The position numbers and the translations under genes were made by a program. A DNA stretch of 64,000 nt from an uncultured bacterium (GTDB lineage: Bacteria > Verrucomicrobiota > Lentisphaeria > Victivallales > UBA1829): NCBI GenBank assembly GCA_900548385.1, contig URKJ01000005.1:67793-131792 (forward strand). The letters are read 5' to 3'. A model generated the notes under the pieces. That model worked only from the letters and a program-made list of their open reading frames with translations. It was not told where the DNA came from and did not search any database. Shown in pieces: positions 79 through 60,327 of the stretch. Numbering within the stretch: the stretch's first letter is position 1; every line of letters begins with the position of its first letter.

Positions 79-879
79 TCACCGATGGTTTTTGTTCGGA
101 ATTTCCGGCAGTTCCGCCGGTGTGAGTCCCTGCCGGAGTTTGGTAAATGTGCTGGCATTAATCACTCCGCCGTCTTTCCGATTCAGTGCGGCGGAATCGT
201 TCCGTTTGCGCAGGACGGGGTAAAGTTCAGATTCCCGCTGTGCGGCGATCAGAAGCATCGCCTGCTGAGGAGGCAGAGAAACGAAAATCGTACCGCTGGA
301 ACTTCCGCTTTCCCTGAACGAGCCGCGTTCATTGGCGATCCCGATTACCCGCACACATGGCAAAAGGACGGAGGTCTCTCTCGACTCGGTCATCTTAACT
401 CCGGAACCGTCGCTTGCCGTCATATTCTCGTTGACAACAACATGGGGGGAAACATAAGTAGAAATAATGGCAATTTCGTCGTCCGGCATCAGCATCCTTA
501 CAAGGGCAGGATCTGAAAATGTTACCGGGAGAGTCCATTCCCCCGGACGTGCACAGTCGCTGAGCGTTGTCTGAATCCGGATATCCGTCATCAGAATATA
601 GTCGTCCTGAGAAACTGCATGAGGCAGTTCCTGACCGTATGCCAGCCCCACATTTTCCCAGAGCAGAGCATTTTTGGGAACAGCGGACTGTGGAATGTCC
701 TTATAGGTAAGTGCTCCCTGGGACAGTTCATCATGAGCCTCCAGATCCCGTGCGGCCACAACGACAGAGATCTTATTTTCCGTATCTGCCTTTTCTTTTT
801 CAAAAAGAAGTTTGCTGACGATATAGACTGCGGCCAACCCTAGGATAACCGATACGACGAGTGGAATAATATTTTTCAT
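79..879 (-). CDS. cpaB: Flp/Tad pilus assembly protein CpaB (RcpC family)
   Basis: ORF 79..960, with the start moved to ATG 879 (MKNIIPLVVSVILGLAAVYIV membrane anchor). It has a SAF-like segment (ISVVVAARDLEAHDELSQGAL) and a CpaB-like C-terminal half. Confidence 0.75.
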   Translation of the reverse strand: MKNIIPLVVSVILGLAAVYIVSKLLFEKEKADTENKISVVVAARDLEAHDELSQGALTYKDIPQSAVPKNALLWENVGLAYGQELPHAVSQDDYILMTDIRIQTTLSDCARPGEWTLPVTFSDPALVRMLMPDDEIAIISTYVSPHVVVNENMTASDGSGVKMTESRETSVLLPCVRVIGIANERGSFRESGSSSGTIFVSLPPQQAMLLIAAQRESELYPVLRKRNDSAALNRKDGGVINASTFTKLRQGLTPAELPEIPNKNHR

Positions 880-1172
880 TCCATTTGCTCCCGGAATCAA
901 TTTATTTGCTGTCTGACTGAGCGGAATGAAATAATCTATCACTGATAAAGAAAATTTCAAGAGGTAATTTCACAAGTTTTTATCAATATGGAAAAGACGA
1001 AAATAGTTAAGCCTTGCAGCTCATGATCTTATCACTGTCAGATATGGATCAATAAATTCGCGTTCCGGCAATCGGCAGGCATTTCCCGCGGTGAATCCGG
1101 TTTTCATCGCGGCAATGCAGACCGGAAAGCAGAGTATTTTCATTTTTTACTCTTGATTTTTTTGTGATCCGC

Positions 1173-8208: not shown

Positions 8209-8508
8209 TCAGCGGAAGGCGGCGATCAGCAGAGCGGCGAACCAGAAGAGCAGAACCAGCACCGCGAATCCGCGCAGACAGTGGCGGAACGCGGTGCGGA
8301 AGACCGCTTTGCCGGAGATTTCCCGTTCCTGCTCCCGGTTCGTCCAGTTGGCGATCCGGTGAGTCAGAAACAGAAAGACCGTCACGAATTCCGCCGCAAC
8401 GATCAGGGCGGAATGCAGACGGAACAGCAGAGCGACCGTGAACACCAGAGCAAACAGTGCAAAGGTGTCCCACAGCAGATAACAGATCCGTTTCAGTTCT
8501 CCGTTCAT
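8209..8508 (-). CDS. Small three-helix membrane protein, function unknown
   Basis: The 99-aa protein has three hydrophobic helices. Its ATG at 8508 overlaps the upstream stop as ATGA, which suggests translational coupling. Confidence 0.55.
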   Translation of the reverse strand: MNGELKRICYLLWDTFALFALVFTVALLFRLHSALIVAAEFVTVFLFLTHRIANWTNREQEREISGKAVFRTAFRHCLRGFAVLVLLFWFAALLIAAFR

Positions 8509-9434
8509 CGTTTCACTTGGGGAAATTCATCCACGGCTTTCTGGGCGGTTTCGCGGAGGAACGCCGCGTCTTTATTGCCGATCATATCGGGAACGAACGT
8601 CACTTCGGAGGTCTTGTGCCCGAACAGAGCGGCGAACCAGACGCACGCCTGAAGATACTGTCCGCGTGCATTCAGATGGATTGTGTCGCGCCGGAGTTCC
8701 ATTTCTCCGGTTTCCCCGTTTTTCGCCCACCAGATATTGCCGACGAATTCCGAAGCCTGCGGCGGGAGGTCCGGCCAGCGGAGCGTATTGAGCAGTTCGG
8801 GGTCATAGTTCGGAAACAGACCGTCCTGCGCTTTCCGGGCGAGCTGGACGGCGTAACCGGTGGGGATGATCCGGCAGTTGAGTTCCGTTGCAAGTTTGGT
8901 GTATGCGGCGGTCAGGCTGTTGTACATATCCGTCAGGCTGATGTGCCACGGACCGGGATCAAGCGTGACGCCGAGTTCCCGGCAGCGTTCGTATATTCCG
9001 GGATTGAATTCCCAGACTCCGCCCGGACGGATGCGCGGATCATCCGCACGGTATGCCCAGGTCTGCTGAATCACAACTTCCGCCTGCGGTGCGTGCTGTT
9101 TCACATAATCGTAAATATAGCCTGCGAACGGCTGCTGGGTTTCCGGCCGCCAGCTGAAATGACTTGCCTGCTGAATGGTGACGATGTCCCACTGTTCCCG
9201 GGCGAGGATTTCGCGCATTTTGGCGGAGTAATTCTGATACATCCGGTAAACTTTGTCTTTTTCCTCGTTGGTGATGTAGTTCCAGTGACGGTGCAGTTCG
9301 CATCCTCCGTGGTTTGCGCGTTCAAAATGCAGTTCGCATCCGGCGGATTCCACGACCTGCTGCCAGAATGCGGCGAGACTGTCCGTGAAACTGTTGCCGA
9401 TGGTCAGAACTTTCAGACTGTTTTTGCTGTTCAT
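8505..9434 (-). CDS. SGNH/GDSL-fold hydrolase-like protein (DUF4886-like)
   Basis: An N-terminal block-I-like motif (VLTIGNSFTDS), a 309-aa length and no signal peptide. Confidence 0.55.
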   Translation of the reverse strand: MNSKNSLKVLTIGNSFTDSLAAFWQQVVESAGCELHFERANHGGCELHRHWNYITNEEKDKVYRMYQNYSAKMREILAREQWDIVTIQQASHFSWRPETQQPFAGYIYDYVKQHAPQAEVVIQQTWAYRADDPRIRPGGVWEFNPGIYERCRELGVTLDPGPWHISLTDMYNSLTAAYTKLATELNCRIIPTGYAVQLARKAQDGLFPNYDPELLNTLRWPDLPPQASEFVGNIWWAKNGETGEMELRRDTIHLNARGQYLQACVWFAALFGHKTSEVTFVPDMIGNKDAAFLRETAQKAVDEFPQVKR

Positions 9435-9572: not shown

Positions 9573-9601
9573 TTGATTTTCGACCGAAGGAAACGTATAT
9601 T
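9573..9601 (+). promoter_or_regulatory. Sigma70-like promoter of gltS (TTGATT-N17-TATATT)
   Basis: TTGATT at 9573-9578, a 17-nt spacer, then TATATT at 9596-9601, about 50 nt upstream of ATG 9650. Confidence 0.4.
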
Positions 9602-9649: not shown

Positions 9650-11011
9650 ATGGATGCGGTTACATCGTTTTGCGGACTCTGTCTGCTGCTGATTCTCGGA
9701 AAGATCCTGCGGATGTACATTCCGTTGTTTCAAAAACTGTATCTGCCGTCTTCTGTGATCGGCGGCGGGATCGGGCTTCTGCTTGTTTCTGTTTTCAGGG
9801 AGGAGATCCCGCAGAACTGGACCGCCGGCTGGGGACAGATTCCCTCGTTTCTGATTAATATCGTATTTGCCGGGCTTTTTCTCGGAGTCGCCACCCCCGG
9901 CCTGCGGAAAATCTGGAAAGTGACCGCCCCGCAGCTCTGTTACGGACAGATCGTCGCCTGGGGACAGTACATCGTCGGTGTACTTGTGGTGTTTCTGATT
10001 CTGGAACCGCTGTTTCATGTCGGCCCGGCGTTTGCGGCTCTGTTGGAAATGGGATTTGAAGGCGGGCACGGGACAGTTGCCGGGCTTGTGGATACGTTCA
10101 ACGAATTCGGCTGGACGCAGGGAAAAGACCTCGGATTTACTGTGGCGACGGTCGGCATGATCTCCGGCGTGGTTCTCGGCATGTGGCTGGTCAATCTTGC
10201 CGTCAAATACGGCTGGGTGAAGAACATCCGGCTGTTTGAGGATCAGAGTTCCCATGAACGCAAGGGGATTTATCCCAGTGACGAACAGCCTCCGGCGGGC
10301 AAACAGACCGTGGCATCGGATTCCATCGACTCGCTGGCGCTTCATGTGGCGATCATCGGACTTGCGGTGACGCTGGGGTATCTGATCCGCGAACTGCTGA
10401 TCATGGTCAACACCGTGATGCCTCGGAAAGTTCAGGATCTCCGCTTCCTTGCCAGTTTTCCGTTGTTTCCGCTCTGCATGATCGGCGGATTGATCCTGCA
10501 GAAGCTCTTTACGTTGCTGAGAATGGATTATCTGATCGACCACGGGCTGATGCAGCGTCTTGCCGGCACGTCGCTGGATTTCCTTGTCGTGGCTGCTGTG
10601 GTATCAATCCGTATTGAATTTGTTGCCGCAAACTGGATGCCGCTGACGATCCTGTGTGTGGCAGGAATCATTTGGAATGTTTCTCTGACCCTCTTTTTTG
10701 CTCCGCGCGTTTTTACGAATTCCTGGTTTGAACGTGCGATCGCCGAGTTCGGGCAGGCTTCCGGCGTCACGGCGACGGGGCTTCTGCTTCTGCGCACGGT
10801 CGATCCGGAAAACAAGACGGTTGCCGCAGAGGCGTTCGGTTACAAACAGCTTCTTCACGAGCCGTTCATGGGGGGCGGCATCTGGACGTCGCTTGCTGCT
10901 TCCCTGCTGCTGACGCAGGGCTTTACCGTGGTCTTTGTTACCAGCATTGTCATGATGGTTTTCTGGCTTCTTTTCTGGTTTTTCGTTCTCCGCAAAGGAG
11001 CATATATCTGA
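9650..11011 (+). CDS. gltS: Sodium/glutamate symporter family protein (GltS-like)
   Basis: The 453-aa polytopic protein has a GltS-like N-terminus (ILGKILRMYIPLFQKLYLPSSVIGGGIGLL) and a matching overall layout. Confidence 0.7.
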   Translation: MDAVTSFCGLCLLLILGKILRMYIPLFQKLYLPSSVIGGGIGLLLVSVFREEIPQNWTAGWGQIPSFLINIVFAGLFLGVATPGLRKIWKVTAPQLCYGQIVAWGQYIVGVLVVFLILEPLFHVGPAFAALLEMGFEGGHGTVAGLVDTFNEFGWTQGKDLGFTVATVGMISGVVLGMWLVNLAVKYGWVKNIRLFEDQSSHERKGIYPSDEQPPAGKQTVASDSIDSLALHVAIIGLAVTLGYLIRELLIMVNTVMPRKVQDLRFLASFPLFPLCMIGGLILQKLFTLLRMDYLIDHGLMQRLAGTSLDFLVVAAVVSIRIEFVAANWMPLTILCVAGIIWNVSLTLFFAPRVFTNSWFERAIAEFGQASGVTATGLLLLRTVDPENKTVAAEAFGYKQLLHEPFMGGGIWTSLAASLLLTQGFTVVFVTSIVMMVFWLLFWFFVLRKGAYI

Positions 11012-11031: not shown

Positions 11032-11055
11032 ATGTTAAAAGTGTAACATTTTTTA
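11032..11055 (+). terminator. AT-rich hairpin plus T-run after gltS
   Basis: ATGTTA-aaagtg-TAACAT is followed by TTTTTTAT. The stem is weak (6 bp, AT-rich), so it could instead be a regulator site. Confidence 0.3.
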
Positions 11056-11080: not shown

Positions 11081-11109
11081 TTGACATTTTCCGGGAAATA
11101 GAGTATAAT
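11081..11109 (+). promoter_or_regulatory. Consensus sigma70 promoter (TTGACA-N17-TATAAT) of the LacI/pseudopilin/GH operon
   Basis: Exact TTGACA at 11081-11086, a 17-nt spacer, then exact TATAAT at 11104-11109. This argues against the ORF-track start at 11108 and for ATG 11150. Confidence 0.6.
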
Positions 11110-11149
11110 GTATACCGGAAAACAAAGATATGGAAGGGCGTCAGCCGGT

Positions 11150-12145
11150 ATGGAACGGGTCAATTTCAGAAAAATTGCGGAAGAACTGAACATCAGTCAC
11201 ATGACGCTTTACCGCGTGATCAACAATGCGCAGGATGTGAAAGAATCCACCCGTGCGCGAGTGATTGATGCGCTCAACCGTCACGGTTATTACCGGAATG
11301 AGCGGAGCAAACCGAAGACCGTGATCATCGACGTCGACAGGTCCGGTCGTTCCGACTATATGCGTTCGCTTGTGGAAACGCTGACGGAACGGCTTTCCGT
11401 TCATGCGTTTCAATGCATTGAGACGAATCATGCCGAAAACCGCCGGCAGTTTCTTCTCGCCTGCCGTAATGCGGATGTTGCGGTTCTCGCTCCGATGAGG
11501 GACCGCACGGTTTATGACGAAGCGAAAGACATCAATCCCGATCTGTTCATTCTGAATCTTCAGGGCGATACCGTCGGCGACGTCGCGATTGCCAGCAACG
11601 ATTTTCTGGGCGGGGAACTTGCCGCGCGCCATCTTCATTCTTTCGGCCACGACCGCCATGTCGCCGTCATGCTGCCGGAAACTCAGGAGCAGCGCCACTC
11701 TTTCCGCAACCGTTACAAAGGATTCCTTTCGGAAATGCTTCTTCTTTCTCCGAAGTGCCGGATTGACATCCTGAAATATCCCCTGTTGGGGTCGTTACGG
11801 AGAAACAAGACTTTGGACACCTTTTTCTGCCGTAAAAAGCGTCCCGGCGCGCTCTTCTGCCCGGGAAGATTTTTTGCGGACAGAGTGGTCGAATACTGTC
11901 GTTGTCACGGGATTTCCATTCCGGGCGAACTTTCGCTGCTCGGATATGACAAACGGCCGTTCAACCAACCGGAACTGCCGGATTACGACCGTGTTGTTTT
12001 TGATCCGGAGCAGTTGGTGAACTGGGCAGAGTATTTCATCATGAACCGTCCGGTGATGAAATGCCGCTCCCCGGTACATCTTCTGCTGGATATGAAAATC
12101 GAATTTCATCAAACCGTAATATCAACAGGAGAAAAGAGAAAATGA
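11150..12145 (+). CDS. LacI-family transcriptional regulator
   Basis: An N-terminal HTH ([37 protein letters not shown]) is followed by a periplasmic-binding-protein-like sugar-sensor fold. The stop overlaps the next start as ATGA. Confidence 0.85.
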
Positions 12146-12870
12146 GGAAAAACAACTTTAGTCTTATAGAACTTCTGGTCGTAATCTCGATTATTGCAAT
12201 CCTTGCGGGTCTTCTGTTGCCGGCTTTGAACTCGGCAAGGGAAAAAGCACGGCAGATTACCTGTGTTTCCAACATGAAACAGATCGGAACCGCTTATATC
12301 GGCTATCTGGATTCTCACGATATGCAGTCTCCCGATTCGGACGGGAATCATCACTATGTCAGCCAGGCGTATTACGGAGACAGCGCTTACCGGAGGAGCG
12401 TCAGCGAAAATCCGGGGGCGAAAAAGTTTTATAATCCCGTCGGTTTTCTGTATTGCCCCAATGCGCAGACCTTTCCCGGTTCCCTCCACAGTTCCAGCTA
12501 TGTGCTTTCCCAGGGATTGGATCGCAATACGCATCCTTACGGAGGGAGCTGGTATTACGATTCCGACTCAAAACCTGTTGCTAAGAAAATGTATAAAGTG
12601 CGTCCGGACAGTGTGATTTTTGTGGAGAAACGCATGTATCAGCTCTGGGCTGGCTGTGCCGGCGGTGAGCGCGGAATTGTGCTGCCGTATTATACCCGTC
12701 CCGGTACAGGTTACGTTCCCGGAATGTCTGTGGAGAGCTGGAGCAGTTGCGGCAAATATCCCGGCTGGGCAAATCATGGCGGCAACATTACGTCGTTTCT
12801 GTTTTTCGATGGACACGCGGAGCTGATTCGATTCGGAACATCGTTCAATGATGATTGGATTAAAAAATAA
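12142..12870 (+). CDS. Prepilin-type N-terminal cleavage/methylation-domain protein with a C-terminal H-x(9-10)-DGH motif (DUF1559 / H-X9-DG pseudopilin-like family)
   Basis: The N-terminus reads [37 protein letters not shown]. The C-terminus carries [20 protein letters not shown] moved the start from the ORF-track 12061 to ATG 12142. Confidence 0.85.
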
Positions 12871-12888
12871 CCAAAGGAGAAAATAAAG

Positions 12889-13818
12889 ATGAAAATGATC
12901 TTGTCAGCAGTGCTTTGCGCTTCCGTTCTGACGGTTTCCGCGGCGGAGACCGTTCTTAATGCCGGGTTTTCCGCGCAAAAATGGAGCAAGGCTTCCGAAT
13001 GGAATTTCACGAATGACTCCGCACAAGCGGTGCAGACACCGGGCAAATACCCCTGGCTTTCCACTGCGGTTCCGCTGGAAGCGGATGCGTTCTATGAATT
13101 GACGTTTGATTACAGGACTTCGGGCGCGAAAGATCCGGGGGATGCACTGCTTTGCCACTGTTCCGGCAACGATTTCCGGTTTCCGCCCGTGACCGGCTGG
13201 ACACAGGGAAAAGGGTATTTCCATAACGTGGAAAAAAAGAACGGAAAGCTGGTTTTCCGGCTCACGGGAAAATCCGCATACCGTCTGGAACTGCGCAACG
13301 TTATTTTGAAAAAACTTGCACCATCGGACCTGAAACGGATTCCCGTGGATTTTGAGAAAGACGGCGGTCCCATGCCTGCTTTTTTCAGGAAACATGACTG
13401 GAACGGTGTGACGGGATCGCTGGAAGTCGTTGAGGCGGAAGATCATATCAGCGGCGGGAAAGCCATGAAAGTCTCTTTGCGGGGCGGAGAGAAACGGAAC
13501 GCGGCGGTGTTTTCGCTGGTTCTTCCTTTGGAGCCGGAAAAAAAATACAGTCTCTCTTTCTGGGCGAAAGCCCGGACGCAGACTTCGCTCCGGTTTGGCA
13601 TTGACGGCTATATTCGCGGTTACCGTCACTGGTACCGGCAGCGGACCGTCTCTGTGGAGACCGGATGGCGGAAGTATGCGCTGGAGTTTTCCGGTCCGTC
13701 GCTTGCGGAGTTTCCCGGAATGGCAAAACGGACCGCGTATCTGAATTTCGGGCTAAGCGCACAGGAGGAAAATACTGTGCTGATCAAAGATATTGTACTG
13801 GAACAGAGAGGAAAGTGA
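12889..13818 (+). CDS. Secreted protein made of two CBM4/9/22-like beta-sandwich modules with no catalytic domain
   Basis: It has a signal peptide (MKMILSAVLCASVLTVSAAE) and an AAGGAGA Shine-Dalgarno site. Two internal halves each carry the W..F...Y.L.F..(K/R) pattern (FYELTFDYRTSG and YSLSFWAKART). Confidence 0.6.
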   Translation: MKMILSAVLCASVLTVSAAETVLNAGFSAQKWSKASEWNFTNDSAQAVQTPGKYPWLSTAVPLEADAFYELTFDYRTSGAKDPGDALLCHCSGNDFRFPPVTGWTQGKGYFHNVEKKNGKLVFRLTGKSAYRLELRNVILKKLAPSDLKRIPVDFEKDGGPMPAFFRKHDWNGVTGSLEVVEAEDHISGGKAMKVSLRGGEKRNAAVFSLVLPLEPEKKYSLSFWAKARTQTSLRFGIDGYIRGYRHWYRQRTVSVETGWRKYALEFSGPSLAEFPGMAKRTAYLNFGLSAQEENTVLIKDIVLEQRGK

Positions 13819-13823
13819 CAGTT

Positions 13824-16775
13824 ATGAACCGTCTTTTTCTAAGTTTGCTGATTGCGGGGGCTGTTCCGCTTTCCGGAGGAAATCTGCTGCATAATTCCAG
13901 TTTTGAACTGGGGATTTGCGGATGGCAGATCTGCAATTTCATTCCTTTGGAAAACAGAATTCTGACTTATCAGAAGCCGGAGTTTGACAAGAAATCAAAA
14001 ATTCACGGCAGTCAGAGTTTAAAATGTGTAAATCCCCGTGGGGAATGGATGCAGATGATCTCCCACGAGTTCCAGTTGCAGGATGGAAAGGAATACACGT
14101 TTTCCGCATGGATGAAAAGTGATCGTCCGCTTACGTTGAAAATGGATTTCTTTACCGTGACGCATAATCCGCCGGAAGTTCAGAACAAATGGTATTCCCG
14201 GTCGAAGAGTTTCCGGCTTTCCCCGGACTGGAAGCGATACAGCTTTACGATCCGCGGAGAGAAACCGCATCTGTATCCTTTTCTGCGTCTCAGCTGGAAC
14301 GGCGGGAGCGTCTGGTTTGATGCAATGCAGGTCAATCCGGGAAAGATCACGGATTATGCTCCGTCAGCCGGACTGGAATTTGCCGTCGAAGGCGCGGAAC
14401 GGTTTGCCGGAGTGGGAGAGGAAAGGCTTGTATTGAAAGGCGTCAACTACACGGACGCTCCGGCGGATGGCGTGTTCGGGATGGAATACCGGGACATCTA
14501 TTTTGATAAAGTTTTTGCTGCACGGAAATATCCGGTGAAGCTTGCCGCAAAAGGGAGTTTCAGAACCCGTCTTCGGGTTCCGTCCCGTTACGGCGTTTTC
14601 CGTGTGGCAGGAAACGTGAACTGCAAGGGAAAAGAGTATTCCGTCATCCCGTGGGATTTCGGCTGTGCGCCGGAGTTGTCCGCCGCACGGATTGATCCGG
14701 ACCGCTCTTTTGTTCTGGGGTACAGTTCCGCCGCGGGTGCGTTTCCGAATCCGGCGGGGAAGCGGGAGTACCGGGCTTTGGGTGTGGATTATGAGAAATA
14801 CTATAAAAACCTGCGCCGGCAGGGGATCCGGATCAACCGTCTGCATGACGACGGCGTTTTCGGTTGGGAGAACATTGAGCGGGAACCGGGAGTTTATGAC
14901 TGGCGTGTGTTGGACAATGTGATAGATACCGGGCTCAAATACGGAATTGAGACAATGCCCGTTCTGGGCGGAAGGGCAATGTTGGACAACGTAAACAGGA
15001 AAGATCTTGACCATTGGCATATCCGCAAAGGCAGTCGGAAGACCAGAGGCTTTCATTCCAGCTGCGGCTGGCTTCCACCGGAAAAAGCGTGGTCGGATTT
15101 CGTATACAATCTTGTCCGGCACTGCAAAGGCAGGGTCCGTTACTATGAGATTGTCAATGAACCGAACCTTTATATGACGCCGGAAGATTACACCCGTTAT
15201 CTGAAGCTGGCATACGAAGTGGCGAAGAAAGCGGATCCCGCCTGCCGGATCGTCGGGATTTGCAGTACGGGAGATCTTGGGGGACGTCTGGGTGATTTCA
15301 TAGAAGCCTGCGGAAAACTTGGAGCATTCCGCAGTTTGGACATTCTTTCGTTTCATCCTTACAGTGCGCAGTTGGACAGTTCTCCCACTCCTGCGGAGGT
15401 GCAGCTGCGGGAAATCCGGAAGATCGCGGATCAATACCGCATAGGTGTTCCCCAGTGGAATTCGGAGCTGTACTATATCAAGTCAAACGAAGAACATGGC
15501 AGGATCGGCAATTTGACTGACTGGATCCTTTCCGGGAGGTTTCCCGCCTGCAATACGCTCCGCCGGTATCTGATCGACCTCGGAGGCGGATTGAAAAGCT
15601 CCATCAGCCTGACAGCGGCACAGAGTCTCCACAACGATCTCCGCCCCCATTTCGGTTATTCGAATCACTGGGCGGTTGCCGAACAGATTCCCAGTTCCCA
15701 CTGTATTGTCGGCAATTCGTTCGCCCGGTTTCTGGAGGGGGCGGAACCGGTGCGTCAGCTGAAACTGCTGTCCGGGGTAAACGGATGGCTTTACAGGGAC
15801 CGATCCGGCGGTCAGGTGGCTGCGTTTTGGGCGAAAGACGATGACGGACGGTTCAAATTCCGGTTCGACGCCGCCGGAACGGAGCTTTACGACCTCTTCG
15901 GCAATCCGGTTCCTGCGCGGTCCTGGATTCCATTGACTGCCAATCCTTATTACCTGACAGGGAAAGATCTTTCCCCCGCACTGGCTTCCCTGACGATTGT
16001 TCCCGAGCGGCTCTATACGGTGACGGGAGTTCATTCCATCGTTCAAAACGGTCGTCCGGTGCTGGCGGTTGAATTGAGAAACAACTCCGCAGCTTCCCTG
16101 CCTCTTTCTGTCCGGATTATGGGGGGAAAGACGTTCCGGAGCGTTACCCTGAAAGGCGAGGAGGCGCGCACGCTCTTCTTCCCTGCGGTCAGCGCTGAGA
16201 CGGAGCCTGTCACTGTCCTTGTTTCCGCAGGCGAGACGGTGGAATCGTACAGAATCCGTCCGGTTTGCCGGAAAACGGTCGGGAATGGAGAAACGGTTTC
16301 GATGAACGGATACCGTTTCCGGATAAATTCGGATGCCGCCGGGCTGACGGTTTCCGTGGAAGTTCGGGATTCCGTTCGGGGAGAACGGCGGAACGGCGCC
16401 CCATGGGAAGGGGACTGCGTCGAGCTGTTTTTTGACGGCTGCCCGTGGGAACGGCTGGACCGTAATTCCTATACGGATGACGTGGTCCGCCTGTTTCTTG
16501 CTCCGGGCTCCTCCAATGGACTGCCGGAACTGTTTTCCGCCAGCCGTAATTTCAGAACGGAAACATGCAAATATGAGATCCGCGAAACGAAGACGTCCTA
16601 TTCCGTCACGGTTACAATTCCGTGGAGTTCTCTGAATCGGTCTGCACCGGAACCCGTCGGTTTCGATATTATTGTAAACAACTCAAACGGAAAGAAACGG
16701 GATTCCGCTGAACCCTGGGCAGGGAATGAATATAATTGGCGGGACCGTTTCAATTTCGGGATTTATATGCCCTGA
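13824..16775 (+). CDS. Secreted multidomain glycoside hydrolase: N-terminal CBM-like module, clan GH-A TIM barrel, and C-terminal CBM9/DOMON-like module
   Basis: The start is ATG 13824, which opens a signal peptide (MNRLFLSLLIAGAVPLSG). NSSFELG marks the CBM start. WENIEREPGVYDW and the YYEIVNEPN acid/base motif mark the barrel. The C-terminus has GDCVELFFD. The GH family is not assignable by eye. Confidence 0.75.
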   Translation: MNRLFLSLLIAGAVPLSGGNLLHNSSFELGICGWQICNFIPLENRILTYQKPEFDKKSKIHGSQSLKCVNPRGEWMQMISHEFQLQDGKEYTFSAWMKSDRPLTLKMDFFTVTHNPPEVQNKWYSRSKSFRLSPDWKRYSFTIRGEKPHLYPFLRLSWNGGSVWFDAMQVNPGKITDYAPSAGLEFAVEGAERFAGVGEERLVLKGVNYTDAPADGVFGMEYRDIYFDKVFAARKYPVKLAAKGSFRTRLRVPSRYGVFRVAGNVNCKGKEYSVIPWDFGCAPELSAARIDPDRSFVLGYSSAAGAFPNPAGKREYRALGVDYEKYYKNLRRQGIRINRLHDDGVFGWENIEREPGVYDWRVLDNVIDTGLKYGIETMPVLGGRAMLDNVNRKDLDHWHIRKGSRKTRGFHSSCGWLPPEKAWSDFVYNLVRHCKGRVRYYEIVNEPNLYMTPEDYTRYLKLAYEVAKKADPACRIVGICSTGDLGGRLGDFIEACGKLGAFRSLDILSFHPYSAQLDSSPTPAEVQLREIRKIADQYRIGVPQWNSELYYIKSNEEHGRIGNLTDWILSGRFPACNTLRRYLIDLGGGLKSSISLTAAQSLHNDLRPHFGYSNHWAVAEQIPSSHCIVGNSFARFLEGAEPVRQLKLLSGVNGWLYRDRSGGQVAAFWAKDDDGRFKFRFDAAGTELYDLFGNPVPARSWIPLTANPYYLTGKDLSPALASLTIVPERLYTVTGVHSIVQNGRPVLAVELRNNSAASLPLSVRIMGGKTFRSVTLKGEEARTLFFPAVSAETEPVTVLVSAGETVESYRIRPVCRKTVGNGETVSMNGYRFRINSDAAGLTVSVEVRDSVRGERRNGAPWEGDCVELFFDGCPWERLDRNSYTDDVVRLFLAPGSSNGLPELFSASRNFRTETCKYEIRETKTSYSVTVTIPWSSLNRSAPEPVGFDIIVNNSNGKKRDSAEPWAGNEYNWRDRFNFGIYMP

Positions 16776-16790
16776 CTACGAGGAAGCTGT

Positions 16791-17708
16791 ATGAAAAGCA
16801 TTTTCAAACGTTATTCGAAAAATCCGATCCTCCGCCCGGAGGATATGCCGTCCGACTGTTTTGCCGTGTACAACGGCGGCGTGGTGAAAACGCATGGCGG
16901 ATACATCGCGCTGGTTCGCACGGAAGATTCCGTCCGTTATCAGCGCGTCTGGTGTGCGCGCAGTTCGGACGGATACCGTTTCTCCCCTGATCCGGAGCCG
17001 GTACGCTTTATCGCCGATGATATGGAGCAATACCGGAAATATACCGCCGATTCTTTTTTTGATCCGCGGATTAATCCGGTGGAAGGGAAATTTTATATTA
17101 CATATGCGGCGTATACGTTCCGTTACGGCTGCCGGATCGGGATCGGGGAAACGGAGGATTTCCGGACGGTCCGGCATATCTCGTTTCCGCATCATGTGCA
17201 GAACCGCAATGCGGTGCTGTTTCCGGAAAAGATCAATGACATGTATGTGATGCTGCACCGTCCCGAAACCGGCGGAATCGGCAATCTTTGGATTTCCCGC
17301 TCTCCCGATCTGCGGTTCTGGGGCGATTGTGAAGTCGTTGCCGATCGTGGAAGCGGACGTTGGGACAGTATCAAAATCGGGGCCGGAACTCCGCCGCTCA
17401 AAACGTCCCGCGGCTGGCTTGTCGTGACTCATGCGGTCGATTCCAACTGTTCCGGACAGTTCTATACGGTCGGAGCGGTTCTGCTGGATCTTCAGGAGCC
17501 GTCGAAACTTGTTGCCCGTTCCCGGATGTTGATGTGTCCGGAAATGCCGTATGAGACAAACGGTTTTGCGCCGAATGTGGTTTTTCCCTGCGGAGCGGTT
17601 CCGGAGCCGGACGGATCACTCAAGCTCTATTACGGAGCGGCGGACAATTTTGAGTGTCTTGCTGAAACGACCGTTCAGGCTCTGCTGGATGAATGTCATC
17701 CGGTCTGA
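16791..17708 (+). CDS. GH130-family glycoside phosphorylase/hydrolase (beta-mannoside-acting family)
   Basis: The 305-aa protein has no signal peptide. GH130-like motifs are KRYSKNPILRPEDMP, NGGVVKTHGGY, RNAVLFPEKI and KLYYGAADN. Confidence 0.8.
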   Translation: MKSIFKRYSKNPILRPEDMPSDCFAVYNGGVVKTHGGYIALVRTEDSVRYQRVWCARSSDGYRFSPDPEPVRFIADDMEQYRKYTADSFFDPRINPVEGKFYITYAAYTFRYGCRIGIGETEDFRTVRHISFPHHVQNRNAVLFPEKINDMYVMLHRPETGGIGNLWISRSPDLRFWGDCEVVADRGSGRWDSIKIGAGTPPLKTSRGWLVVTHAVDSNCSGQFYTVGAVLLDLQEPSKLVARSRMLMCPEMPYETNGFAPNVVFPCGAVPEPDGSLKLYYGAADNFECLAETTVQALLDECHPV

Positions 17709-26187: not shown

Positions 26188-27117
26188 TCATCCGCCGATG
26201 ATGTAATCGACCAGAACGTCCTGGATGCGGTATTTCCCGGCGAGGAGTTCCTTGAGCAGCGCCACCGCCCGGCGGGCAAGAGCGGGAAAATCCTGACGGA
26301 TCGTGAACTGACCGGGCATCAGAGTGTCGGAGATATGCGGAATGTGCCAGTGGATCAGTTCCACGTCCTGCGGGATACGCAGTCCCTGACGCCGGAGATC
26401 GGCAAACAGGCTCAGATCCGTCATTTCAAACGGGCAGATGATCGCGGTCAGTTTTTCCCTGCGGAGATAAGCGCCCCAGTCGGAGCGGTCCGACAGTCCG
26501 GCATGGAAGGGTGTGATGCCGGACTGTGCGGCGAGTTCCCGGAAGCACTCTTTCCGCCGGGTGTGGTTGAGATTTCCCGCCATCGGTTTCCGGTCGATGT
26601 AAAGAACGCGGGAGTGTCCTGCCGTGCGCAGGTGTGTCACGATGGCGGACATCGCCATGCGGTCGTTGGAACAGACGGAGTAGATGCGGTCGGAATGATA
26701 GCTGAAATCGTTGATGCAGACCAGCGGGATCGGGTTCAGTTCCGACCATCTGCGTGCGGTTTTTCCTGTGTAGCAGAGAGAAATCGCGCCGTCGATGATT
26801 TTTTCGTTGAAAGAACGGAGATGGTTTTCCGGGATCAGTTCGTACTGGAACTCTTCGCTGTCCAGCTGTGCGGAGAGAGCATGAATGATTGAGGTGTTGT
26901 AAAAGCAGACGTCGTTGCCGAATGCGGGAACGACGACTGCGATATTAGTTCTGTTTTTTCCGATATACCCGAGTTCGCGTGCGGCGGAGAGAATCCGGCT
27001 TCTGGTTTCAACCGCCACATTTCCGGCATCCGAGAGAGCCCGTGCCACGGTGCAGTGTGCGTATCCGGTCCGCCGGGCGATCTCCCGGACCGTGATTTTT
27101 TGCGTTTTTTTCAACAT
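26188..27117 (-). CDS. LacI-family transcriptional regulator
   Basis: The HTH reads [44 protein letters not shown]. The gene is divergent from the glycoside hydrolase gene at 27219. Confidence 0.85.
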
Positions 27118-27218: not shown

Positions 27219-29114
27219 ATGAATATTTTTGAGAAAAACGATTTTTTCACCGGATGCAACTACTGGGCGTCCCATGCCGGGATTTACATGTGGCGCAACT
27301 GGAGCGCGGCGGATGTGGAACGGGATCTGGAATTGCTTGCCGCACATAATATGAATGTTCTGCGCGTGTTTCCGCTCTGGCCCGATTTTCAGCCGCTGAC
27401 CCGTTTTTACGGCGGCTGCGGCAGCAGGCAGGAGTTCGGGCAGAACGGCGGGCCGCTTCAGAATCCCGCCTGTATGGATATGGAAATGATGGAACGTTTC
27501 CGGTTTCTCTGCGACGCCGCGGAAAAAAACGGACAGAAACTGATTGTCGGTCTGCTGACCGGATGGATGAGCGGGCGCCTTTTTGTTCCGCCGGCGCTGG
27601 AGACGAAAAACGTGCTTACGGACCCGGAAGCGATCCAGTGGGAAGTCCGTTTTGTGCGTTGCTTTGTCAAAGCGTTGAAAGATCATCCGGCGATTGCCGC
27701 GTGGGACCTCGGCAATGAATGCAACTGCATGGCAGAAACTTCCGGTCCTGCGGAAATGTGGTTGTGGATGAATTCCATCGCCTCCGCGATCCGTCTGGAG
27801 GATCCGGTCCGCCCGGTCGTGTCCGGAATGCACAGCATCAGTTCAAGTCAGTTCGACAGCCAGAATCTTCAGACGCAGGGCGAACTGATGGATGTTCTCA
27901 CGACGCATCCCTATCCGCTGTTTACACCGGAATGTCATCATGAACCGTTCAACACCATGCGCAACGAACTGCATTCGTCGGCGGAATCGCTTCTGTATCA
28001 GGGCGTTGCCGGAAAACCGTGCTTCCCGGAGGAAGCCGGGGCGCTTGGTCCGATGGTCTGTTCCGTAGACCGTGCGGCGCTGAATCTGCGTGCGGCGCTC
28101 TTTTCCTCCTGGGCAAACGGACTTTCCGGATTCCTCTGGTGGTGTGCGTTTGACCAGACTCATTTTGATTATCCGCCGTATGACTGGACCGCGATCGAAC
28201 GGGAACTCGGCTTGTTCCGTACGGACCGTTCTGCGAAACGGACGGCGGAAGTGATGCGCGATTTTACGGCATTCCGCAAGAGCCTTCCGTTCGAGCTGCC
28301 GCCGCGCAGAGTCGATGCGGTCTGTCTGATTTCAGAAAAGGAGAACGGCTGGATCAACGCGTTCGGTGCGTTTCTCCTTTCCCGTCAGGCAGGATTTGAT
28401 ATCCGGTTTGCCGGAGGGGAACAGGAACTGCCGGAATCGGATTTCTACCTGCTTCCGTCGGTTGGTTCCTCGCAGGCCTATTCCCGCAAGACCTGGCTGG
28501 CAGTGCTTGAGAAAGTCCGCGCCGGGGCGGATCTGCTTGTTTCCGTGGAAGGTTCCGGTTATCTTTCCACGTTCCGGGAAGTTACCGGTGTGGAGGTTGA
28601 CGCCCGTTACCGCGAAGCGTGCAATCTGGAATTTTCGTTGAAATCGCATCCGGAACAGACGATGCGCGGAGTCAGTGCGTTCCGCTCTCTGGTGGTTGCC
28701 GAACGCGCCGAAGTGCTTGCCGCGGATACGGACGGCAATCCGGTGATGACCGTTGCGGATTATGGCAGAGGCCGGATCTTTTTTGTGAATCTCGCCGTTG
28801 AAAAGATGTCGGTTGCGGAGATGCCCGGCTGTTTCCATGGCGAAGCGCTGAATCCGCTTTACCTGCTTTACCGCGAGGCGGCGGATCGTATCGGGATCAA
28901 GCGGACGGCAACGAAACTTCTGCCGGGTGTCGGGATCACGGAACATGCGTTGGAAGATGGCCGTACGGTCTGCGTCGCGGTCAATTATGAACCGGAAGAG
29001 GCTGTCTGTCCGGTGGCCGTGAACGGCAAAGTCGTTCAGACCTGGAACGGGGAATGGAGTTCCGGAACTCTGCGGATCGCCGGCAATGACGCCGCGGTTT
29101 TCCTGGTGGAATAA
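27219..29114 (+). CDS. Cytoplasmic clan GH-A glycoside hydrolase with a GH42-type middle/trimerisation-like domain (family not assigned)
   Basis: There is no signal peptide. The TIM-barrel start reads NMNVLRVFPLWPDFQP, and the acid/base-like motif is AAWDLGNECN. The second half is flavodoxin-like (VDAVCLISEKENGW...FYLLPSVG). Confidence 0.65.
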   Translation: MNIFEKNDFFTGCNYWASHAGIYMWRNWSAADVERDLELLAAHNMNVLRVFPLWPDFQPLTRFYGGCGSRQEFGQNGGPLQNPACMDMEMMERFRFLCDAAEKNGQKLIVGLLTGWMSGRLFVPPALETKNVLTDPEAIQWEVRFVRCFVKALKDHPAIAAWDLGNECNCMAETSGPAEMWLWMNSIASAIRLEDPVRPVVSGMHSISSSQFDSQNLQTQGELMDVLTTHPYPLFTPECHHEPFNTMRNELHSSAESLLYQGVAGKPCFPEEAGALGPMVCSVDRAALNLRAALFSSWANGLSGFLWWCAFDQTHFDYPPYDWTAIERELGLFRTDRSAKRTAEVMRDFTAFRKSLPFELPPRRVDAVCLISEKENGWINAFGAFLLSRQAGFDIRFAGGEQELPESDFYLLPSVGSSQAYSRKTWLAVLEKVRAGADLLVSVEGSGYLSTFREVTGVEVDARYREACNLEFSLKSHPEQTMRGVSAFRSLVVAERAEVLAADTDGNPVMTVADYGRGRIFFVNLAVEKMSVAEMPGCFHGEALNPLYLLYREAADRIGIKRTATKLLPGVGITEHALEDGRTVCVAVNYEPEEAVCPVAVNGKVVQTWNGEWSSGTLRIAGNDAAVFLVE

Positions 29115-55400: not shown

Positions 55401-56912
55401 TTACGGAGAACTGCAGCCGGGAGCCCTGCTGCTCCGGTTTCGCCGGAAAGCATTCAGCAGAATGCGTTTTCTGGGGTTGTCATTCGATGGTACAAGGGTG
55501 TCGTCCGTCGGTCCGGCGTATTCCAGACTCCAGATTTTTGCTTCCCGGAATGCGTGATAGGTCCAGTCCCAGCCGGCTTCTTCAAATGCCCGGATGCTGT
55601 CTTCCAGATACCGTTCCGCACCGGGTGCGCATGCGCGGGCGGAGAATTCACCGACATAAATTTTTGCCTGATGTCTCCGCTGAAATTCCCGGACGGGCCG
55701 CAGGCGCGCTTTCAATGACTCAAAATCCCAGTTTGCTCCGAGAAATTTTCCGGGATAAGACGGAAGTGTCTTTCCCGCTTTCCGGTCCTTTTCGGTGAAA
55801 CGGGTATGCGTGTACACAAACGGATCGTATGAATGGAGCTGATAGATGATGTTTTTCAGTTTCAGCGGCGAAAGGTACGGGTAGGTGTACGGGGAACAGA
55901 GATGATTGGATTCGATATAGATGGGCGTTTCCGGGTCAATTCTGCGGATTGCCTCCGCCGCCAGCCGCTGAACTTCCCAGTAACCGAACCGGACGGGCCG
56001 TTGTTCGTTGGGTTCATTGATGAGATCATAGCCGTACAATGCCGGATGTCCCTTGAATTTGGCGGCAATGCGTTCCCAGATCCGGATGAAGAATTGTACC
56101 CGTTCCTCATCATCGAAGAGACAGGGATTGTTCCGGGAATTCGCCGTGCCGGGAACGGTGTGCAGGTCGATGATTATGGCGATGCCGTATTTCCTGCCGA
56201 GATCAAGAACGTTCGGGATTACCTTTTCGATTTTTTCGTCGATGAATTTCCGATACCGGAGCGGATCGCGTGCGATGGCTTCGGATGTGTTCAGCTGAAG
56301 CCGCATCAGATTGACGTTCCAGTCACGCAGGACTTTGAAGTTTTCCTCGTTTGCCTGATCGGTGATCGGGCTCATTACGCCGCGCCGGAGCGGACGGTTT
56401 TTCACGGCGTCGGAGTATTCGCAGAGGTGATCGACATTCTGTTTCGTGAATTTCACTGAAACTTTGAACGTGCGCAGATCATACTCCATTCTTCCGGAAA
56501 CATCCTGCATTCCGAAGCGCAGGTATCCGGTTCCGGCATCCGGTTCAATCATTGCCCCGAATGCGAGTTTCGTATTTCCGAATGAACCGTATCTTCCGTT
56601 GCTTTCCGCGTAATGCCGTTTGCCGTCCGGAGTGGTGTAGGAGAGAATGAACTTCTGCCCGAAATGCCGTTGCGGCGGTTTTGAAATGTTGTCGCCCCGT
56701 CCCATGACTTCCCAGACTGCATAGCGGTTGCGGAACGGTTTCAGATCAACCGTGAACAAGGCTCCGTGTATTCCTTTGGCGGAACCGGTCGGGATTTCGC
56801 AGATGACTTTGCCGTCTTTGATCTGCGAATACTCCGACATTTTGGCTTTTCCGAGCTCAAGAGCGGAGACGTTCAGAACGGAGAGCAAGAAGAGCAGGAA
56901 CAGATGCTTCAT
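55401..56912 (-). CDS. Secreted GH5 (cellulase-family) glycoside hydrolase with an N-terminal beta-sandwich domain, paralog A
   Basis: A signal peptide (MKHLFLLFLLSVLNVSA) is present. The acid/base motif is YGYDLINEPN and the nucleophile motif is IYVGEFSA. The start is ATG 56912. Confidence 0.85.
   Translation of the reverse strand: MKHLFLLFLLSVLNVSALELGKAKMSEYSQIKDGKVICEIPTGSAKGIHGALFTVDLKPFRNRYAVWEVMGRGDNISKPPQRHFGQKFILSYTTPDGKRHYAESNGRYGSFGNTKLAFGAMIEPDAGTGYLRFGMQDVSGRMEYDLRTFKVSVKFTKQNVDHLCEYSDAVKNRPLRRGVMSPITDQANEENFKVLRDWNVNLMRLQLNTSEAIARDPLRYRKFIDEKIEKVIPNVLDLGRKYGIAIIIDLHTVPGTANSRNNPCLFDDEERVQFFIRIWERIAAKFKGHPALYGYDLINEPNEQRPVRFGYWEVQRLAAEAIRRIDPETPIYIESNHLCSPYTYPYLSPLKLKNIIYQLHSYDPFVYTHTRFTEKDRKAGKTLPSYPGKFLGANWDFESLKARLRPVREFQRRHQAKIYVGEFSARACAPGAERYLEDSIRAFEEAGWDWTYHAFREAKIWSLEYAGPTDDTLVPSNDNPRKRILLNAFRRNRSSRAPGCSSP
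56350..56425. repeat. 76-nt tract identical to 57866-57941 (copy A)
   Basis: Base-by-base comparison of the two GH5 paralogs gives 76/76 identity at a constant offset of 1516 nt. Confidence 0.9.
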
Positions 56913-56916
56913 CGGA

Positions 56917-58449
56917 TTATTTTCCTTTCCTGTCATTGTTTCGGAATGCGTTCAGCAGGACTTCTTTGCGCGGAGTGGAGGGGACCTGTTTCATGGAATC
57001 CAGCGCGGGACCTTCGTGTTCCACGCTCCAGAGAGCGCCTTCCCGGAATGCGTGGTAGGTCCAGTCCCAGCCGTATTCCTCGAAAACGCGGATGCAGTCC
57101 CGCAGATAAGCGTCTGCTCCCGGTGCGCAGGCAAACGCGGAGAATTCGCCGACATAGATTTTCGCCCGGTGCTTCTTTTCAAACTCCCGGACATACGAAA
57201 GTTTTTTCCGGATCTGTACGAGATCCGGTCCCCAGAATGTGCCGTAGTAGGTTCCGGGATAGATCCGGTATTTTATTTTTCCGGTTTCAAGATCGCGTTT
57301 TTTCTGAATAAAATAGTGAGTGTAATCGAACGGTTCGTAGAAATGGCACTGATAAATGATGTTTTTCAGTTTCAGCGGGGAAAGGAAATAGAATGCCAGA
57401 GGACTGTTCATCATGTTGGATTCGATATAGATGGGCGTTTCCGGGTCGATTTCCCGGATGGCTTCCGCGGCGCGGCGCTGGAGTTCCAGATAGTCGGTTT
57501 TTGCCCGGCGGGTTTGTTTGGGTTCGTTGATGAGGTCGTAACCGTACAGTGCGGGATGTCCTTTGAATTTGGCCGCGATCCGCCGCCAGATGTGGAGGAA
57601 TTCATTCACAGCGGCTTCATTGCCGTAAATGGCGTCGGATTCTTCCGTCATGCGGGCGCTGCCGGGGACGGTGTGAAGATCAATGATGATCATGACACCG
57701 TATTTTTTCCCCAGATCCAGTACGCGGGGAATGACATCGTTGATTTTTGTGTCGATGAATTTCCGGTATGCCTGCAAGTCGGTCCGGGCGAGTTCGTCGG
57801 AAGTGTTCAGCTGAAGCCGCATCAGATTGACGTTCCAGCTGCGCAGAACCTTGAAATTTTCCTCATTTGCCTGATCGGTGATCGGGCTCATTACGCCGCG
57901 CCGGAGCGGACGGTTTTTCACGGCGTCGGAGTATTCGCAGATATGATCCCGGTTTTCTTTGCGGAACAGACGTTCCATAAGCAGGGAGTCCAGATCGAAT
58001 TCGACCCGTCCGGTACAATGTTCCAATCGGAGTTCCGCGCGGCAGGACTCCGCGTGCGGATCCAGCGAGATGGTACCCGGAAGGAGCCCGGATCCGCTTT
58101 TCCGGGCTTGGAGAAAACCGCCGCCGAGCCGTTCGTGGCTGTTATCATCCGCCGGATAGGAGAGACGAAGCCGTATTCCGGCTTTCGGATTGTTCAGATT
58201 GCCTGTCAACCTGGCTTTGAAACGGAGTCTTCCGGTCAGCATTTCTGCCCGGTATGGTTTCAGATTGAGTCGAAATGTGGGGAATGTGACCGGGGCTTTG
58301 CTGTTTTCCGGAAGAGTGAGGATAAGGCGTCTGTTTTCGACGACGGCATTGGACCCCGGATTCAGGTCCAGAATTCCCGGCTGGAACGCAGCTGCTGCGG
58401 AGAGCAGGGAAAACGGAAGAAGGGCGGTGCTCAGAAAAAACAGTTTCAT
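56917..58449 (-). CDS. Secreted GH5 (cellulase-family) glycoside hydrolase with a divergent N-terminal beta-sandwich domain, paralog B
   Basis: A signal peptide (MKLFFLSTALLPFSLLSAAAA) is present. The acid/base motif is YGYDLINEPK and the nucleophile motif is IYVGEFSA. Confidence 0.85.
   Translation of the reverse strand: MKLFFLSTALLPFSLLSAAAAFQPGILDLNPGSNAVVENRRLILTLPENSKAPVTFPTFRLNLKPYRAEMLTGRLRFKARLTGNLNNPKAGIRLRLSYPADDNSHERLGGGFLQARKSGSGLLPGTISLDPHAESCRAELRLEHCTGRVEFDLDSLLMERLFRKENRDHICEYSDAVKNRPLRRGVMSPITDQANEENFKVLRSWNVNLMRLQLNTSDELARTDLQAYRKFIDTKINDVIPRVLDLGKKYGVMIIIDLHTVPGSARMTEESDAIYGNEAAVNEFLHIWRRIAAKFKGHPALYGYDLINEPKQTRRAKTDYLELQRRAAEAIREIDPETPIYIESNMMNSPLAFYFLSPLKLKNIIYQCHFYEPFDYTHYFIQKKRDLETGKIKYRIYPGTYYGTFWGPDLVQIRKKLSYVREFEKKHRAKIYVGEFSAFACAPGADAYLRDCIRVFEEYGWDWTYHAFREGALWSVEHEGPALDSMKQVPSTPRKEVLLNAFRNNDRKGK
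57866..57941. repeat. 76-nt tract identical to 56350-56425 (copy B)
   Basis: See copy A. The flanking ~70 nt on the upstream side are also near-identical, including a further 36-nt exact match. Confidence 0.9.
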
Positions 58450-60274: not shown

Positions 60275-60303
60275 ATTATACAACAAAACCGGAAAAAAGT
60301 CAA
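60275..60303 (-). promoter_or_regulatory. Near-consensus sigma70 promoter of the LacI/pseudopilin/GH5 operon (TTGACT-N17-TATAAT on the minus strand)
   Basis: The plus strand shows AGTCAA at 60298-60303 and ATTATA at 60275-60280, with a 17-nt spacer. Confidence 0.55.
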
Positions 60304-60313
60304 GAGGTAAAAC

Positions 60314-60327
60314 TGGAAATATTTCCA
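60314..60327. promoter_or_regulatory. Perfect 14-bp palindrome TGGAAATATTTCCA (candidate LacI operator)
   Basis: The sequence is exactly self-complementary and lies 10 nt upstream of the -35. A related site, CTGGAAATGTCC, lies at 60253-60264 between the -10 and the start codon. AACTGGAAAT occurs twice (60251 and 60311). Confidence 0.5.

Follow-up and report, generated by a model that had tools for sequence, protein, structure and literature searches.

Polysaccharide utilization loci (PULs) of Bacteroidota bring together, in one cassette per glycan, a specific regulator, exported binding proteins and endo-enzymes, and enzymes for intracellular finishing. Bacteria of the Planctomycetota-Verrucomicrobiota-Chlamydiota (PVC) phyla degrade glycans of the gut, the soil and the sea without SusC/SusD, and the route by which they secrete their enzymes and take up polymers is in question. 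Here we analysed a 64,000-nucleotide stretch of DNA (the window) from an uncultured bacterium of the Lentisphaeria (Victivallales, UBA1829; GenBank assembly GCA_900548385.1, contig URKJ01000005.1, positions 67,793 to 131,792), in which the open reading frame (ORF) listing and translation revealed five co-oriented genes packed between 11150 and 17708. They encode a LacI-family regulator, a pilin-like protein, an exported carbohydrate-binding protein, an exported glycoside hydrolase (GH) and a cytoplasmic GH130. The cassette shares the features of Bacteroidota PULs named above, but it has no SusC/SusD and no TonB-dependent transporter, its binder of the CBM4_9 type (CBM, carbohydrate-binding module) lacks a lipid anchor, and operons of this kind are headed by LacI, GntR-PBP (PBP, periplasmic-binding protein) or AraC regulators and not by a hybrid two-component system or an extracytoplasmic function sigma factor. 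A pilin-like protein sits where an envelope component would be expected. The operon is not a member of the Bacteroidota-type PULs; what is new is a PUL-like operon with a private pilin in place of the envelope component, while the GH130 step is already known.

Pilus-type structures have been connected with glycans before. In Akkermansia the type IV-like pilus locus MUL2 (Amuc_1099-1102) is required for mucin uptake (PMC13174399, PMC12418764), and type IV pilins have been implicated in the adhesion of Fibrobacter to cellulose (PMC3079729). MUL2 resembles the present case in that a PVC bacterium lacking classical Sus uptake acquires glycans with the help of a pilus-type apparatus. Compared by description only, however, MUL2 is a single conserved locus with PilM and an archaeal-type pilin, not a set of per-operon paralogues, and it is not coupled to sugar regulators; nothing PilM-like was found in the five-gene operon. 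Given these two systems, the statement in the preliminary description of this DNA that no such role had been established was too strong. The pilin-like protein belongs, in a divergent form, to the DUF1559 / H-X9-DG family, whose function is stated as unknown; in Planctopirus no paralogue group is larger, with 68 copies, two of them essential (PMC10632474). The DUF1559 proteins of Planctomycetota and Verrucomicrobiota share with those of Lentisphaerota a class-III-type helix, a Cys pair, a C-terminal His...Asp-Gly and massive paralogy. The Lentisphaerota copies differ in being shorter (about 220-270 aa), in lacking Gly/Ala at position −1, in matching the Pfam profile over ~30 residues, and in being the only ones set between sugar regulators and exported carbohydrate-active enzymes (CAZymes).

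Cargo-specific pilins have a precedent in CofB-CofJ of enterotoxigenic E. coli and TcpB-TcpF of Vibrio cholerae, in which a minor pilin recognises a particular exported protein that is not released or displayed without it. Unlike these, which are single minor pilins of one type IVb operon that encodes the machinery too, the pilins described here are probably numerous in each genome and lie separately in catabolic operons far from machinery genes, as extrapolated from the family size and the sampled loci. The GH130 pathways (mannan operons of Bacteroides fragilis and Ruminococcus albus; UhgbMP for N-glycans) are alike in combining extracellular cleavage, import and energy-saving cytoplasmic phosphorolysis of the GH130_2 type. 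Known operons combine GH130 with a mannanase of family GH26 or GH5 and have either a sugar-cation symporter or an ATP-binding cassette (ABC) system, whereas here the endo-enzyme is GH39-like and comes from a small unnamed family, and the carrier would lie outside the operon. In the incomplete library that was available, no literature was found on pilins in regulator-CAZyme operons of Lentisphaerota or Kiritimatiellota or on their function.

The main finding is a rule of gene order in Lentisphaerota, in which a sugar regulator is followed by a private pilin and the pilin by exported enzymes that act on carbohydrates. Pilin loci were collected with a pilin-alignment scan using one genome per species, which gave 80 loci across PVC phyla, and the neighbouring genes were classified with Pfam. 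Sugar regulators (GntR/LacI-PBP or AraC) accounted for 15/32 genes upstream of pilins in the 28 Lentisphaerota loci, against a background of about 7/119 regulators in the same loci (p = 2e-7). Upstream regulators numbered about 0-1/45 in the non-Lentisphaerota loci (mostly Verrucomicrobiota and Planctomycetota), with none in the top families (p = 2e-6), and among the sampled loci the regulator coupling was confined to Lentisphaerota. The gene directly after the pilin looked exported in 13/19 cases versus 17/119 in the background (p = 2.4e-6). In this sample of public genomes, the enrichment test that the preliminary description had proposed was thus strongly positive for Lentisphaerota, with pilin genes placed between sugar regulators and exported CAZymes far more often than expected by chance. 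The downstream CAZymes included DUF4838, CBM9, heparinase, GH67, GH42, GH78, GH123, GH39, GH43, GH95 and polysaccharide lyases. Three of four further paralogues, inspected with database gene calls and Pfam, likewise showed a LacI/GntR regulator, one or more pilins, and then GH5, a GH44-like enzyme or DUF4838/CBM9. Where the regulator is of the LacI or GntR-PBP type it is co-oriented with the pilin and often overlaps the pilin start by 4 nt; where it is of the AraC type it is divergent, and the pilin comes first in the opposing enzyme operon (L007 18147-19882; L011, L013, L051 and L082). In other PVC phyla the pilin neighbours were diverse and largely of typically exported types, not CAZymes alone, and therefore the handling of exported proteins is favoured over sugar binding as such.

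The cassette of the window also recurs as a unit. In locus L007 all five genes stand together again in an unrelated genomic context and are followed by an additional GH3; LacI is 49% identical to its counterpart in the window, the pilin 65%, the CBM protein 49%, the GH 58% and GH130 77%, so that the pilin is better conserved than LacI, the CBM protein or the GH. The pilin, the CBM-only protein and the GH remain adjacent at GH identities of 38%, 34% and 28%, in three gene orders: GntR, pilin, CBM, GH in L090; pilin, GH, CBM, GH28 in L091; and GH, CBM, pilin, GH130 and further genes in L092. Among 230 pilins, the distant relative whose head comes closest to that of the window's first pilin is the one in L090 (E = 1e-19), and ordinary paralogues match that head at 1e-8 or worse. 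The co-occurrence survives reshuffling, and this is the strongest computational sign that the pilin is functionally linked to the cassette. A regulatory role that needs the pilin beside the regulator was considered and is weakened, because the pilin stands elsewhere in the cassette in L091 and L092.

The minus strand of the window carries another operon built like the first, in the order LacI, pilin, GH5, GH5. It follows a promoter TTGACT-N17-TATAAT (60275-60303, −, read from the sequence), in a region (60275-60340, −) where GGAAATATTTCC, a perfect palindrome of 12 nt, lies upstream and ATTTCCAGTT is directly repeated on both sides. The regulator (338 aa, 59216-60232, −; Pfam LacI and Peripla_BP_3) is followed by a pilin-like protein (252 aa, 58461-59219, −; Pfam PF07596 and N_methyl) with a 4-nt overlap with the LacI stop and 26% identity to the first pilin. 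Directly downstream are two tandem GH5 enzymes (58449-56917 and 56936-55401, together 55401-58449, −; Pfam Cellulase E = 4e-23 each), both with signal-peptide-like N-termini. A third LacI gene (26188-27117, −) is divergent from, and probably controls, a GH-A/GH42-like enzyme (27219-29114, +); this enzyme has no signal peptide and the locus has no pilin gene, which fits a rule by which the pilin goes with exported enzymes only.

The first operon starts behind a sigma-70-type promoter, TTGACA-N17-TATAAT at 11081-11109 (+), which matches the consensus at 12/12 positions. It is the sole exact match in the 64-kb window, none was found in 100 dinucleotide-preserving shuffles of the window, and the −35 and −10 hexamers are kept in orthologous loci whose proteins are 49-77% identical. 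A consensus promoter ahead of five genes, separated by gaps of −4, 18, 5 and 15 nt, had been the starting observation of the preliminary description; the promoter was found again and the gaps were reproduced exactly. Independent gene calls on identical human-gut metagenome contigs gave the same five gene boundaries. Each junction carries a GGAG/GAGG-type ribosome-binding site, and a convergent rsmB-like gene terminates 61 nt past GH130.

Two putative regulatory elements surround this promoter. The 16-nt inverted repeat TGTTAAAAGTGTAACA (11033-11048, +) is located ~30 nt 5' of the −35 box and is nearly invariant in the upstream regions of L009 and L007, with one substitution in L007, where the flanks diverge. 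It resembles CRP/FNR-type TGTGA-N6-TCACA half-sites and is a candidate activator or repressor site. The inverted repeat TTTTCCGG / CCGGAAAA lies around the −10 box (11087-11122, +) with 8-nt arms that are 100% complementary and is a candidate LacI operator; the TTTTCCGG motif also occurs directly after the −35 box of the second operon's promoter.

The first gene (11150-12145, +; Pfam and independent gene calls) encodes a LacI-family regulator of 331 aa, with an N-terminal helix-turn-helix (HTH; PF00356, E = 1.2e-8, 35.0 bits, cut-off 27) and a periplasmic-binding-protein-like sugar-binding domain (PF13377 Peripla_BP_3, E = 9.8e-10, 39.2 bits, cut-off 26.5), the two parts that define the family. 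An upstream ATG at 11108 was ruled out as the start codon because it sits within the −10 hexamer, and the independent calls start at the equivalent of 11150. As the promoter-proximal gene, LacI probably acts as a repressor of the operon that it belongs to. We tentatively regard the locus as a five-gene LacI-controlled operon, its genes presumably co-transcribed, that would serve the use of a beta-mannoside-containing glycan. In a cassette of 64% identity the LacI ortholog is broken at a nine-G run, leaving an HTH part of 60 aa and a sugar-binding part of 285 aa, in two independent assemblies (L007 9002-10004 and L008 768-1770); the break may reflect a frameshift in the regulator, phase variation or a sequencing error common to both assemblies.

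The start codon of the second gene (12142-12870, +) overlaps the LacI stop codon (ATGA). Its 242-aa product, which the preliminary description had called an H-x9-DG prepilin-like protein, does have a prepilin-type N-terminal domain (TIGR02532, 19.2 against a cut-off of 16.3). PF07596 (DUF1559) matched with 27.1 bits (cut-off 23.3), but residues 31-60 only align, to profile positions 2-31 of 268. The relatives of the protein are named 'H-X9-DG protein' or 'DUF1559' in the source databases, but no H-X9-DG model matched it in the NCBIfam search even at E <= 10, and its C-terminal motif is H212-X10-D223G224 where the consensus of 62 relatives has X9. The prepilin-like part of the earlier assignment thus stands and the nine-residue spacing does not; by its sequence the first pilin is a divergent DUF1559 / H-X9-DG member. 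In the alignment of the 62 relatives F6, E10, C41, C105 and H212 are invariant and D223-G224 nearly so, and the heads are otherwise very variable. An AlphaFold2 model showed a helix (residues 8-58) and a beta-sheet head, with a predicted local distance difference test (pLDDT) value of 76.

The third gene (12889-13818, +; Pfam CBM_4_9 and a signal-peptide-like N-terminus) encodes an exported, non-catalytic carbohydrate-binding protein of 309 aa. It had been described as a secreted protein with two CBMs, of which the signal peptide and one CBM_4_9 domain were recovered (residues 170-268; E = 9e-9, 36.2 bits, cut-off 25.9). The second CBM was not, as the N-terminal half shares just a short CBM-like motif with the CBM4_9 domain (E = 0.03); a degenerate second CBM is possible. 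Beyond a plain signal peptide, nothing in the protein looks like an anchor, therefore it would need a partner to stay on the cell. It co-occurs with the GH in L007, L090, L091 and L092.

The exported enzyme encoded by the fourth gene (13824-16775, +; Pfam, AlphaFold2 model and structure superposition) has 983 aa and the architecture earlier outlined for a secreted CBM/GH-A/CBM9-like enzyme of about 980 aa: a signal peptide, an N-terminal CBM4_9-like domain (CBM_4_9, E = 2.6e-6, 28.3 bits, cut-off 25.9), a beta-sandwich, a GH-A TIM barrel and a C-terminal CBM9-like domain (CBM9_1, E = 5e-11, 43.2 bits, cut-off 23.4) that aligns to the CBM9 of a Thermotoga xylanase (1i82). The model, built from 46 homologues, reached a mean pLDDT of 92, with the TIM barrel above 90. 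Within these homologues R339, N445-E446, H511, Y513 and E548 are invariant (N445-E446-P447 and E548 invariant or nearly so). These residues agree with what is expected of a clan GH-A barrel, an acid/base Glu within an N-E-P motif of strand 4 and a nucleophile Glu in strand 7, and since this catalytic set is invariant the enzyme is very probably active.

The family of this enzyme was less easily named. The best-superposing Protein Data Bank (PDB) entries were the GH39 enzyme 5jvk (TM-score 0.73, 16% identity) and PslG (TM-score 0.66); the catalytic module, with its barrel closest to GH39, does not fall in a recognised mannanase family. Pfam gave no GH39 match and a GH42 match below threshold (18.3 bits against 21), and the homologues showed scattered weak, sub-threshold matches to GH5, GH10, GH39 and GH42. 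GH2 enzymes had the top Foldseek E-values, yet superposed with a root-mean-square deviation of 19-28 Å and a TM-score of ~0.2, and were rejected as relatives because they share the barrel and sandwich domains only. Among 5.8 billion proteins the family has 54 relatives, all unnamed (P0121-P0173), and those with a source name or context belong to Lentisphaeria-type bacteria. The enzyme may represent an unclassified clan GH-A family linked to GH130, and it may be a new activity on beta-mannoside-containing glycans.

The last gene (16791-17708, +; Pfam PF04041) encodes a 305-aa GH130 with a strong domain match (E = 1.3e-49, 169 bits, cut-off 26, profile positions 28-317 of 320) and no detected signal peptide. 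Its nearest PDB relatives are TM1225 (E = 2e-63), UhgbMP (E = 2e-50) and RaMP2 (E = 2e-48); phosphorylases including Lin0857 match it at E = 2e-63 to 6e-37, and the hydrolase-type entries 4onz, 3r67, 3taw and 5a7v at only E = 1e-11 to 9e-6. The motifs DPR91, NRN138, HRP156 and H214 coincide in the alignment with residues that UhgbMP and TM1225 conserve and that we take to bind phosphate. No NCBIfam equivalog threshold was reached. These data are in line with the earlier assignment of a cytoplasmic GH130 and place it with the phosphorylase type, as a predicted GH130_2-like beta-mannoside phosphorylase.

The earlier idea of a PUL-like logic also held, in that the operon has predicted exported binding and cleaving proteins and a cytoplasmic GH130, and no SusC/D, ABC or major facilitator superfamily (MFS) transporter. 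No transporter gene of any kind was present within the five genes, and Pfam found no SusC-like TonB-dependent transporter and no SusD in the operon, its flanks or the homologous cassettes. The gene immediately before the operon, in the same orientation and not mentioned in the preliminary description, encodes a 453-aa symporter of the ESS/GltS family (9650-11011, +) and has a weak promoter-like site of its own at 9573-9601. This symporter shows 55-70% identity across Lentisphaerota, Planctomycetota and Oxalobacter and adjoins the cassette in the close relative L009 only, being absent in L007, L090, L091 and L092. It was ruled out as the missing sugar carrier on the ground of being widely conserved and not cassette-linked beyond L009, and we judge it to be an unrelated neighbouring housekeeping gene. 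A carrier of the MFS_2 type is divergent beside the homologous cassette in L092, and transporters made up 1/40 of the downstream genes in other pilin operons. Because GH130 is cytoplasmic and the L092 cassette has an MFS_2 carrier, the pilin cannot replace an inner-membrane carrier; the sugar carrier would be encoded elsewhere in the genome. Of the pilin's proposed part in uptake, the link to the cassette is supported, but the notion that it stands in for the inner-membrane carrier is not.

We tentatively favour the reading that a dedicated, operon-specific pseudopilin exports or displays the operon's own exported proteins. In this model the CBM4_9 protein and the 983-aa enzyme would leave via Sec, and the polymer would be bound and cut outside the cytoplasm. 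The oligosaccharide products would enter by the carrier encoded elsewhere, and the cytoplasmic GH130 phosphorylase would yield mannose-1-phosphate and a shorter sugar. The pilin would insert into the inner membrane by its class-III-type N-terminal helix and join, or act beside, a shared type II secretion or type IV filament-like machine. Its variable head would contact and handle the exported proteins of its operon, moving them across the outer membrane or holding them at the cell surface, and glycan binding and cleavage would thereby stay attached to the cell. Every such operon of Lentisphaerota would bring its own pilin. Export or display is favoured because the gene after the pilin is nearly always exported and the CBM-only protein is anchorless, and it is preferred to glycan capture because the cassette is already rich in glycan-binding modules.

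Several points weigh against this reading. The neighbour statistics use rough ORF calls and 80 loci picked by their similarity to the first pilin, and the signal-peptide test is a crude, conservative heuristic, which gave no false alarm among the cytoplasmic controls of the window. In the structural model of the pilin, residues 170-200 are of low confidence, and in searches of solved structures the head matched no pilin or lectin, pilins and GspG aligning over the helix only. We know of no type II secretion system with cargo-specific paralogues of the major pseudopilin. Within the 64-kb window there is no gene for a secretin, an assembly ATPase, a platform protein or a prepilin peptidase. A further point concerns the −1 residue before the Phe, which was compared using the N-termini of the window pilins (12142-12160 and 59219-59170) and loci L007-L089. 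It is Asn in the first pilin and Gly in 3/45 Lentisphaerota copies, where Arg, Ser, Lys, Asn and Thr dominate, versus Gly or Ala in 62/63 copies from other PVC phyla. Canonical prepilin peptidases require Gly, or at most Ala, at this position, therefore cleavage by such an enzyme is not expected and entry into a filament may never occur. Of the parts of a class III signal peptide, the Phe, the Glu and the helix are present and the Gly at −1 is absent, and the Glu at +5 is invariant despite the non-Gly −1 residue. These sequences imply that either the specificity of the prepilin peptidase has changed or the proteins are left uncleaved and anchored in the membrane. Separately, a 293-aa protein at the left end of the window (79-960, −) gave weak SAF and RcpC/CpaB matches; as an RcpC/CpaB-like Flp/Tad pilus assembly component it hints at a Tad locus past the left window end.

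The genomic evidence for export or display applies equally to the main rival explanation, in which the pilin head itself binds the glycan and a retractile pseudopilus or type IV-like fibre pulls the chains through an outer-membrane channel into the periplasm. Such a device would resemble the competence pseudopili that haul DNA and would provide substrate-specific uptake in a phylum without SusC/D. The heads are highly variable among paralogues and conserved among orthologues, and that of the first pilin is aromatic-rich (30 F/W/Y in 184 residues), but neither a lectin-like fold nor any known sugar-binding motif turned up in it, and three to four CBM modules are already present in the cassette. 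Precedents exist in the type IV-like pilus that Akkermansia needs for mucin uptake and that is kept in fucoidan-consuming relatives (PMC13174399, PMC12418764) and in the pilins implicated in the cellulose adhesion of Fibrobacter (PMC3079729), and Kiritimatiella lacks TonB-dependent uptake genes (PMC5148204). Against these stand the many kinds of exported proteins that the pilin family adjoins in other PVC phyla and the non-Gly −1 residue, which makes filament assembly doubtful. We consider glycan capture by the pilin unlikely.

The −1 residue bears differently on a further explanation. An uncleaved N-in/C-out inner-membrane protein with a periplasmic head would bind and hand over oligosaccharides, or act as an enzyme chaperone, and so feed a distant carrier or sensor. 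That Gly/Ala is almost never found at −1 in Lentisphaerota but occurs in 62/63 other PVC copies is what such a protein predicts, as are the very short, basic leaders, but the Glu at +5 does not vary, nor does the pilin-type helix as a whole, a pattern typical of subunits packed in filaments. The operon has no other periplasmic binding component for oligosaccharides, and Pfam names DUF1559 SBP_bac_10, a solute-binding-protein label (PMC2754498); however, the head has no detectable similarity to any solute-binding protein, and the carrier in L092 is of the MFS_2 type, which uses no binding proteins. This alternative appears quite improbable. Chance placement of a hugely expanded family (6,960 relatives at E <= 1e-5 among 8,000 candidates scored) in genomes where CAZymes and sugar regulators are common, or a general envelope role unrelated to the substrate, is most improbable in view of the 8- to 14-fold enrichment over the same-locus background (p = 2e-7 and 2e-6), the recurring 4-nt start/stop overlaps with the regulator, the persistence of the orthologous pilin with its cassette across contexts and reshuffling, and a conservation of the pilin as high as that of the enzymes.

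The rule has consequences beyond the window. DUF1559 / H-X9-DG is among the largest paralogous families in PVC bacteria, and the rule gives this large family of unknown function its first testable role. The regulator-pilin-CAZyme order may also serve as a genomic marker for glycan operons in PVC phyla, one that is testable in a human-gut lineage. More speculatively, and with considerable doubt, a shared type II secretion or type IV filament-like machine programmed by dozens to hundreds of interchangeable, operon-encoded pilins would be an alternative to SusC/D in Lentisphaerota and perhaps in the wider PVC group. It is similarly doubtful, though conceivable, that under this scheme each pilin is co-induced with its own enzymes through its own sugar regulator and its head sets which proteins are released or displayed, or which glycan is captured. 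If true, this very large DUF1559 / H-X9-DG family would amount to a collection of modules that lend specificity to the acquisition of nutrients.

Two further genes of the window were noted. Just upstream of the second operon and on the same strand, a GH2-type enzyme of 1148 aa is encoded at 60379-63825 (−); no signal peptide was detected at the start as called, and the real one may be located farther 5'. Near the first operon, a DUF4886 protein (E = 2e-39) is encoded at 8505-9434 (−), divergent from the symporter gene.

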